Assembly (NCBI RefSeq): GCF_003790525.1
Contig: NZ_CP033632.1
Reading direction: 5' to 3' (one strand)
Source: Escherichia coli
GTDB lineage: Bacteria > Pseudomonadota > Gammaproteobacteria > Enterobacterales > Enterobacteriaceae
DNA length: 64,000 bases
In this document: positions 48,828-49,790 of the stretch, in pieces
How positions within the stretch are numbered: the first letter of the stretch is position 1
Layout: each line of letters starts with the position of its first letter
Notes under the pieces: model-generated
Databases searched by the model: none
What the model was told of the DNA's origin: nothing
Seen by the model: only the letters and a program-made list of their open reading frames with translations
Position numbers and translations under genes: made by a program

Positions 48828-49217
48828 TTGATGTCAGCCAGTACAAAAAATCATCTTAACGTACAATATCTTCCGTTTCCCAAACGGAGCCCACCAACGG
48901 CGGAGGAACGGCGCATCGCCAATGCTCTTGGCGCTCTCCCCTGCATTGCCTGCTATATGCATGGAGTAATATCTAATGAGGTGTCTCTGCACCATATCGC
49001 CGGTCGTACCGCGCCGGGTTGTCATAAAAAGCAATTGCCACTTTGTAGATGGCACCACCAGCATGCAGCTCCGGCTGAAGTAAGAGCAAAATACCCCTGG
49101 CTGGTCCCTGTTCATGCCGATGGTGTGGTTGGAGGCAAGAAAGAATTCACCCTGCTGAACAAGTCAGAGATGGAGTTACTGGCTGACGCCTATGAGATGG
49201 CAAACATCATGCACTAA
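48828..49217 (+). CDS. HNH endonuclease-like protein, 129 aa (P1 Ref-like)
   Basis: Cys/His HNH-like motifs (CIACYMHGV...SLHHI...LCRWHH); TTG start. Confidence 0.5.
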   Translation: MMSASTKNHLNVQYLPFPKRSPPTAEERRIANALGALPCIACYMHGVISNEVSLHHIAGRTAPGCHKKQLPLCRWHHQHAAPAEVRAKYPWLVPVHADGVVGGKKEFTLLNKSEMELLADAYEMANIMH

Positions 49218-49405
49218 TAAATATATTATTTTTAATGATAAATGATTGACAACTGACAAGTGACTTCAGTCAGAATCATCACATGCCCGGTACGGATGGA
49301 TCCCCTTTCAAATATTCCATGGACGGCACAGTCTGAGTACCGGGCGCTACCTTCAGTTGTATTGCTAAGCCGCCGCTGGTGGCTTTTCTTTTTTGTAGGG
49401 GCGCT

Positions 49406-49753
49406 ATGGATAAGAAAATATGCGTTGTTTCAATGAGCGTCGGCAAACCGGCGTCAATGACTGCTGCATGGATCAACAATGAGCTGATAATGGCTGAGCG
49501 GACCAGCTACCCTGAACGCCGCCGCGATATGGAACTCCAGCTGCTGCGCGAATTGCGAGAAAAAGAGGAAAAGGGTTTTATCGTGCTGGTGGAAGAGGAA
49601 AACAGCTTTATTACCGGTCGAGTTGGCCAGCGTGTAAGGTTGCGTGATCCCTTCATGAACGGCAGGCCGGTACTAATTGAAGCAATGCAGATTTACAAGG
49701 AGTTGGAACGCCAGAAAGCGATCAAGTTACCGCGCAAGGAATCCGGCAAATAG
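49406..49753 (+). CDS. Hypothetical protein; stop codon lies at the junction with the Tn1721-type IR
   Basis: Start taken at MDKKICVV inside ORF 49379..49753. Confidence 0.4.
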   Translation: MDKKICVVSMSVGKPASMTAAWINNELIMAERTSYPERRRDMELQLLRELREKEEKGFIVLVEEENSFITGRVGQRVRLRDPFMNGRPVLIEAMQIYKELERQKAIKLPRKESGK

Positions 49754-49790
49754 GGGAGCCCGCAGAATTCGGAAAAAATCGTACGCTAAG
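49753..49790. repeat. Tn1721/Tn501-type 38-bp terminal inverted repeat
   Basis: ggggagcccgcagaattcggaaaaaatcgtacgctaag. Confidence 0.9.

Follow-up and report, generated by a model that had tools for sequence, protein, structure and literature searches.

Two genes of a P1-like phage-plasmid backbone are damaged in the window (the whole 64-kb stretch of DNA that was analyzed), and the two lesions very probably have separate origins: insertion of a Tn1721-type transposon in the case of mat, and an earlier cassette replacement in the case of ref. When both ORFs were aligned with their P1 counterparts, neither matched its homologue over the full length.

BLASTN comparison with P1 revealed that the backbone extends in the window from approx. 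27.9 kb to position 49,752. Its left limit is a copy of IS26 ending at position 27928 and its right limit is position 49752; resistance DNA flanks it on both sides. The order of the upstream ORFs is that of P1, i.e. pdcB, lpa, pacA, pacB, c1 and cre, the names having been assigned from the sizes of the window ORFs compared with gene sizes and Pfam families in related contigs. The right-hand part of the backbone comprises two blocks: window positions 43498-45518 correspond to P1 nt 1-2026 (96.9% over 2026 bp), and positions 48886-49752 correspond to P1 nt 2306-3173 (98.0% identity). On the right there is the right arm of Tn1721, together with a mer operon of the Tn21 type, tniA and part of a class 1 integron (its sul1 side). 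The resistance region on the left (window 1-27928) carries six copies of IS26 (at approx. 872, 3637, 10533, 16559, 23792 and 27109), the sixth of which directly adjoins the P1-like backbone, as well as oqxAB, aph(3′)-IIa and transposases of the IS91 family.

The gene located at the right boundary of the backbone is mat. A previous reading, made from the sequence alone, had described the ORF at this site as probably a truncated gene fused to a transposon end, with a stop codon overlapping the first base of a 38-bp inverted repeat. Both statements proved correct: the ORF is mat, cut at codon 115 of 213-214 by the end of Tn1721, and its TAG codon (49751-49753) shares one base with the repeat (49753-49790). 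The features of this region are:

49208-49276, plus strand: mat control region, containing the C1 operator Omat (P1 2628-2645) and the promoters Pmat/LPmat (P1 2666-2696), placed by P1 coordinate offset and identical to P1
49367-49395, plus strand: terminator-like hairpin followed by a T-run, downstream of the mat promoters and ahead of the mat ATG (terminator scan; 8-bp stem, 5 G-C pairs)
49406-49753, plus strand: truncated mat, codons 1-115 of 213-214 followed by TAG (alignment to intact mat of pS30C and P1; phrog_1837)
49748-49752, no strand: AAATA, left copy of the 5-bp target-site duplication (AAATA flanks the element at either end in the related contig L012; a single copy in intact mat)
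49753-49790, plus strand: 38-bp terminal inverted repeat, Tn1721 right end (exact match, single copy)

The likely start codon of mat is the ATG at 49406, the first possible start in the ORF list being a GTG at 49379. In pS30C and pS163-2.4 the gene is uninterrupted (645 bp, 214 aa), and most members of the protein cluster have 213 aa. The window fragment matched phrog_1837 only at positions 1-115/212 and does not contain the C-terminal 98-99 residues of Mat. Intact mat of pS30C and pS163-2.4 runs ...GGCAAATACATCC... where the window has ...GGCAAATA followed by GGGGAGCCC; likewise, the intact gene reads ...TCCGGCAAATACATCCTCC... at the mat/repeat junction, versus ...TCCGGCAAATA followed by GGGGAGCCC... 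in the window. The Tyr-116 codon TAC has thus become TA plus G, in which TA belongs to mat and G is base 1 of the inverted repeat. The 3′ half of mat was not found in the window, either with a 34-mer (3 mismatches allowed) or by BLASTN of the intact relatives.

Comparison with P1 Mat gave the same picture. Residues 38-152 of the P1 protein as annotated (1-115 of the 213-aa form) align to the 115 residues encoded in the window, and the C1 operator and late-promoter region upstream is identical in both. P1 Mat is full length, whereas the window copy is stopped by a codon supplied by the transposon. The function of Omat and Pmat/LPmat in the window is assigned by homology; as this region is identical to that of P1, the mat fragment is probably still transcribed. 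Mat matched no Pfam family and is placed by PHROGs only in families of unknown function, and NCBIfam gave no match for either the ref or the mat ORF.

The 5′ end of mat deserves a separate remark. The P1 reference annotation starts Mat 37 codons upstream (250 aa; window 49296-49406, P1 2716-2827). The window and pS30C have GGGG at a site where P1 has GGGGG, which places the 37-codon extension out of frame, and public Mat proteins are mostly of 213 aa, starting with MDKK. The hairpin with a T-run at 49367-49395 is located within this putative extension, downstream of the late promoter and ahead of the ATG. Probably P1 Mat has been annotated with too early a start, or the hairpin serves as an attenuator.

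Public data contain 71 contigs that encode exactly this 115-aa product, under the name "maturation control protein, partial", and a 68-bp string spanning the junction was identical in all of the fetched contigs that encode it (8/8). One of these relatives, L008, shows 99.995% identity to window positions 39406-59753, and another contig (L014) is 100% identical to the window over 10.5 kb. The position of the stop codon on the inverted repeat could be read as a functional fusion, based on translational coupling or on a regulatory read-out of the transposon end. What speaks for such a fusion is only the geometry of the junction, together with its frequency in public data. That frequency is, however, explained by inheritance and the spread of plasmid lineages; the stop arises automatically, as the Tyr codon TAC was interrupted behind its TA and the first base of the repeat is G; and where the same transposon end is inserted at mat nt 208 or nt 570 in other plasmids, the read-through differs. 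We regard a functional fusion as having a negligible probability, and treat the ORF as a mat gene truncated by a transposon insertion.

The 38-mer GGGGAGCCCGCAGAATTCGGAAAAAATCGTACGCTAAG was found at 49753-49790 with 38/38 bases matching. We take it to be the right end of Tn1721 from the sequence of that end and from the presence of Tn1722 genes beside the same repeat in L012. No second copy of the inverted repeat with up to 3 mismatches was detected in the window (0 were expected in shuffled sequences). The DNA that follows the repeat contains the remaining Tn1721 right arm (52071-54942) preceded by a transposase remnant, labeled in RefSeq records of relatives as "TnAs1 family transposase, missing N-terminus":

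49786-51606, minus strand: truncated Tn1721 transposase, 3′ part only (606-aa ORF; the match to the 988-aa tnpA product of L012 stops at 51538)
52071-52955, plus strand: EamA/PecM transporter gene, pecM (ORF list; 99.9%-identical block in pRDB9; Pfam in L008)
52987-54261, minus strand: tet(A) ORF (ORF list; annotation of the pRDB9 block; Pfam in L008)
54265-54942, plus strand: tetR(A) (ORF list; annotation of the pRDB9 block; Pfam in L008), with the Tn21-type mer operon next to it

This right-hand block is 99.9% identical to blocks present in IncHI2 and many unrelated plasmids.

The window contains only the left AAATA; the duplication itself was seen in the relative L012. In this contig the same junction is followed by genes for a 988-aa TnpA, TnpR and a chemotaxis-like Mcp (the Tn1722 gene set), and beyond mcp by the other inverted repeat (35/38), AAATA, the missing 3′ half of mat and an EAL-domain gene. 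L012 is therefore a clean insertion of a Tn3-family element with a 5-bp duplication. A far-end junction with the 3′ half of mat would read CTGCGGTTCCCCC-AAATA-CATCCTCCACC. The mat/repeat junction was absent, as one contiguous match, from PLSDB and the complete E. coli genomes, in which every full-coverage match consisted of two pieces from other insertion sites. The reciprocal junction was likewise absent from these two collections as one contiguous match, and neither junction string had a match in the viral contigs of IMG/VR.

Part of the mcp gene of Tn1721 (480 bp) is located at 23312-23791, approx. 26 kb away and inverted with respect to the right-end junction. It adjoins the IS26 copy at 23792-24611 and derives from the left part of Tn1721, which IS26 activity has scattered.

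The insertion in mat is not a single case. The same Tn1721 right end is present at mat nt 208 in pJSMCR1_2 (3157-3384), HUE1 and LR-46, and at mat nt 570 in pRWS531 (3157-3783); further match spans suggest more insertion positions in mat besides these two. All four plasmids carry the same arm with truncated tnpA, pecM and tet(A) in mat, and differ from the window in the insertion nucleotide. An insertion of Tn1721 between ref and mat has also been described in the P1-like SJ46/P1-CTX (PMC5241659, PMC11117986), which shares with the window the transposon family, the ref-mat neighborhood, a 5-bp AT-rich duplication and the carriage of resistance cargo. The SJ46 element, located between the two genes, carries blaCTX-M-27, whereas that of the window lies inside mat (nt 347), with tet(A) and the mer/integron block.

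The junction of the window, at the same nucleotide and in the same orientation, adjoins two DNA alleles of mat. In contig L012 the final 272 bp ahead of the junction match the window, a pattern that common descent with recombination further upstream could produce. Three other contigs (L007, L011 and L013) carry full-length ref (186 aa) in a backbone only 91-95% identical to that of the window. Comparison of their positions 10276-10347 with window positions 49681-49752 revealed four mismatches in the last 72 bp (at 49681, 49696, 49703 and 49720), the nearest of which is 32 bp from the junction. There are ten differences between these contigs and the window in the coding part of mat, all of them synonymous, and the products are identical. 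Either the site was hit twice independently, or a crossover occurred within 32 bp of the junction.

Evidently, mat is a recurrent landing zone for the Tn1721 end, and the recurrence may result either from target preference (an AT-rich core with G+C flanks) or from mere tolerance of insertions. The stronger proposal, that the AAATA site, and mat generally, is a preferred docking site of Tn1721 in P1-like phage-plasmids and has been hit independently more than once, is tentative, and we consider it rather unlikely. If it were true, the acquisition of resistance would be systematically coupled to the loss of a particle-maturation function and, together with the loss of the DNA-binding tail of Ref, would push such elements from phage towards plasmid.

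The second damaged gene, ref, lies directly upstream of mat and is separated from c8 by foreign DNA:

43498-45518, plus strand: P1-like backbone, P1 nt 1-2026, with a lox half-site, cra, cre (43933-44964) and c8 (BLASTN; P1 feature table; left breakpoint read directly)
45519-48885, no strand: foreign cassette replacing P1 nt 2027-2305 (no P1 homology; Pfam; RefSeq annotation of the same DNA in pS163-2.4)
48831-49217, plus strand: chimeric, 5′-truncated ref ORF, 128 aa, with an alternative TTG start at 48828 (PF16786; PDB 3PLW; phrog_2321; BLASTP with P1 Ref; RefSeq pseudogene call)

The ORF begins with TTG (48828-48830), followed immediately by ATG (48831), and ends with TAA at 49215-49217, its product having 129 aa if translation begins at the TTG and 128 aa if it begins at the ATG. 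Public annotations choose the latter, the 128-aa product being present on 55 contigs, and the 129-aa TTG form was not found in the public protein collection that was searched. The sequence-only reading had noted an HNH-like protein of 129 aa, shorter than Ref of P1, and barred from in-frame extension by a stop codon 9 bp upstream of the TTG. We confirmed both points: the protein matched PF16786 (RecA-dependent nuclease, Ref) with E = 1.3e-51 (profile 1-102/103), P1 Ref has 186 aa (P1 nt 2077-2637), and an in-frame TAA (48819-48821) begins 9 bp 5′ of the TTG.

Residues 19-128 of the ORF correspond to residues 77-186 of P1 Ref, i.e. to the nuclease core, and residues 1 to approx. 18 are novel. 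The structure PDB 3PLW was matched with E = 4e-72 (chain residues 76-186 on query residues 18-128), and the match to phrog_2321 covers positions 79-186/186. In the part shared with P1 Ref, BLASTP revealed, from residue 80 onward, a single substitution, Glu to Ala. In the alignment both catalytic histidines, His134 and His153, are kept as H76 and H95 of the 128-aa ORF; these are the residues mutated in nuclease-dead Ref (PMC4713147). P1 Ref (PDB 3PLW) thus shares with the window the core containing His134/His153 and the downstream gene mat. It also possesses a 76-residue basic, disordered DNA-binding tail with 25 basic residues, in contrast to the window ORF, from which the basic N-terminal segment is gone and in which approx. 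18 unrelated residues, of which few are basic (K6, K18 and R19), stand in its place. The N-terminus reads MSASTKNHLNVQYLPFPK. We considered whether these residues might be diverged Ref, and rejected the idea, as they resemble Ref no more than expected by chance and DNA identity is lost within approx. 12 nt of the breakpoint.

A different explanation of the short ORF is that it encodes a complete, natural short member of the Ref family, P1 merely having a longer N-terminus. The Pfam domain is indeed spanned from end to end, and the ORF is intact and identical on the 55 public contigs, some of which name it "Ref family protein". Nevertheless, P1-homologous DNA (98% identity) starts abruptly at P1 nt 2306, i.e. 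ref codon 77, and the P1 sequence 5′ of ref (nt 1-2026) reappears 3.4 kb upstream, on the other side of an unrelated cassette. In addition, the first approx. 18 residues show no more than chance similarity to Ref, most members of the 90% cluster that holds the truncated protein have 186 aa, and RefSeq flags the same DNA in pS163-2.4 as a pseudogene ("Ref family protein; incomplete; missing N-terminus"). A natural short homologue is therefore very improbable, and we treat the ORF as a truncated ref.

The cassette responsible for the truncation is 3,367 bp long and substitutes for 279 bp of P1. Both of its breakpoints were read directly. The segment lost, P1 nt 2027-2305, held the -10 element of the P1ref promoter and ref codons 1-76. 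The cassette contains a decayed resolvase-like gene (approx. 45.6-46.3 kb) and, on the minus strand, genes for a SnoaL-type ester cyclase, a GlxA/AraC-type regulator (46831-47820) and an MBL-fold hydrolase (47836-48612). Convincing terminal repeats, inverted or direct, from which its entry could be explained were not identified, nor was a target duplication. The junction of truncated ref with the hydrolase gene was found in at least 65 PLSDB plasmids, and a search of 50,697 phage records for it gave no match. In pS163-2.4, a Tn1721 left-end inverted repeat with adjoining mcp is located at 3392-3429, within the cassette's resolvase-like pseudogene, which adds one more independent Tn1721 insertion in the same neighborhood.

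As a result of the replacement, the regulatory context of ref is changed. In P1, ref adjoins a C1-repressed promoter, which provides lytic-cycle expression, whereas in the window ref lies 3.4 kb from the C1 operator: the Oref/P2ref region (P1 nt 1957-1985) is now found at approx. 45443-45480, 3.4 kb 5′ of ref, with minus-strand genes in between, and the -10 element of P1ref is deleted. The last approx. 55 bp of the cassette supply an ATG in frame with ref codon 77, with AAGG 7 nt before it. No plus-strand promoter scored in a scan of the region upstream of truncated ref, and a possible extended -10 element (TGTGATAAT) occurs at 48668-48676. The ORF reads as a pseudogene-like remnant for which some expression is possible, given the intact frame, the AAGG and the possible extended -10. 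Sister copies in pS30C (approx. 3776) and L012 contain changes in the nuclease core, His to Pro in CYMHG and Ala to Thr (window positions 48961 and 48900), which are compatible with relaxed selection on the remnant.

The natural breakpoint in the window lies within one codon of the engineered boundary of the laboratory construct Ref ΔN76. DNA binding by Ref ΔN74 and ΔN76 was undetectable (PMC4330346). Cleavage by ΔN74 and other long truncations was strongly reduced and was partly restored at 10-fold higher protein concentration; at this concentration long N-terminal truncations kept RecA-dependent cleavage of ssDNA (PMC4330346). In vivo, Ref ΔN76 caused neither SOS induction nor filamentation (PMC4713147). 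The 128-aa remnant is therefore predicted to be, at best, a weakly expressed and poorly DNA-binding nuclease, equivalent to Ref ΔN76.

Could such a protein nevertheless be expressed and retained as an attenuated RecA-dependent nuclease, less toxic to the host and suited to a plasmid lifestyle? Its intact frame with both catalytic histidines, the plausible ribosome-binding site and extended -10-like motif, the occurrence of the truncated form in no fewer than 65 PLSDB plasmids and the residual activity of ΔN74 and similar proteins at 10-fold higher concentration (PMC4330346) all fit this proposal. The lack of any upstream plus-strand promoter passing the scan, the displacement of the native promoter and operator, the non-synonymous core changes in pS30C and L012, which resemble relaxed constraint, and the absence of an in vivo phenotype of Ref ΔN76 (PMC4713147) argue against it. 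We consider a retained, attenuated nuclease improbable, and prefer to regard truncated ref as a pseudogene-like remnant.

These data can be arranged into the following history. An earlier, separate event swapped P1 nt 2027-2305 for the 3.37-kb cassette; one ref promoter was thereby lost, the C1 operator parted from ref and the 76-residue basic DNA-binding tail deleted, leaving an intact nuclease core that is preceded by a chance start codon. A transposon of the Tn3 family (Tn1721/Tn1722 type) then entered mat after nt 347, probably with duplication of AAATA, and the mat frame, reading TA plus G at base 1 of the repeat, now stops after 115 of 213-214 codons. Recombination via shared transposon sequence or IS26 may subsequently have brought in more resistance DNA. 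The fusion of the Tn1721 right arm to the widespread mer/integron block indicates that the insert was probably enlarged by later recombination with resistance plasmids, and, judging from the relatives, the other half of mat was probably either carried beyond the window or deleted. In HUE1, which carries the transposon at mat nt 208, the two halves of mat lie, by their coordinates, approx. 34.7 kb apart around a resistance region; this arrangement is a plausible model for the region beyond the window edge.

The sequence-only reading had also stated that the P1 restriction genes res and mod, expected further on, are missing from the window. The absence was confirmed, as BLASTN with P1 res/mod (P1 nt 3544 onward) gave no match in the 64-kb window. 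The expectation itself did not hold. In pS30C and pS163-2.4, in which the cassette is present and mat is intact, an EAL-domain gene comes after mat, together with a frameshifted HTH gene, two small ORFs and a gene for a 1,296-aa helicase-related protein. Since relatives with truncated ref carry EAL-domain and helicase-related genes after mat, res/mod should not be expected downstream in this lineage.

As regards the consequences for the element, mat of P1 is counted among the essential genes because of an amber mutant (Lehnherr 2001, as cited in PMC10695390), whereas CRISPRi knock-down of mat lowered the plating efficiency only to 0.28 (PMC10695390), so the loss of Mat may leave phage production possible. 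The truncated Mat is most likely inactive; particle maturation would then be impaired and the element would be mainly a resistance plasmid.

All of the components described here, i.e. 5′-truncated Ref, a transposon-disrupted mat and a Tn1721 end, are of already known kinds, and Tn1721-mediated acquisition of resistance in the ref-mat region of P1-like phage-plasmids has already been published (PMC5241659, PMC11117986). The analysis fixes the exact boundary between the phage backbone and the resistance region in a multidrug-resistant P1-like phage-plasmid. It indicates that mat and ref should be annotated here as disrupted, and has little importance beyond annotation. The recurrent landing of Tn1721 in mat is of modest interest for tracking how phage-plasmids pick up resistance genes. 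For the element itself, our results suggest that its functions as a phage are probably impaired and that it is disseminated mainly in the form of a plasmid.
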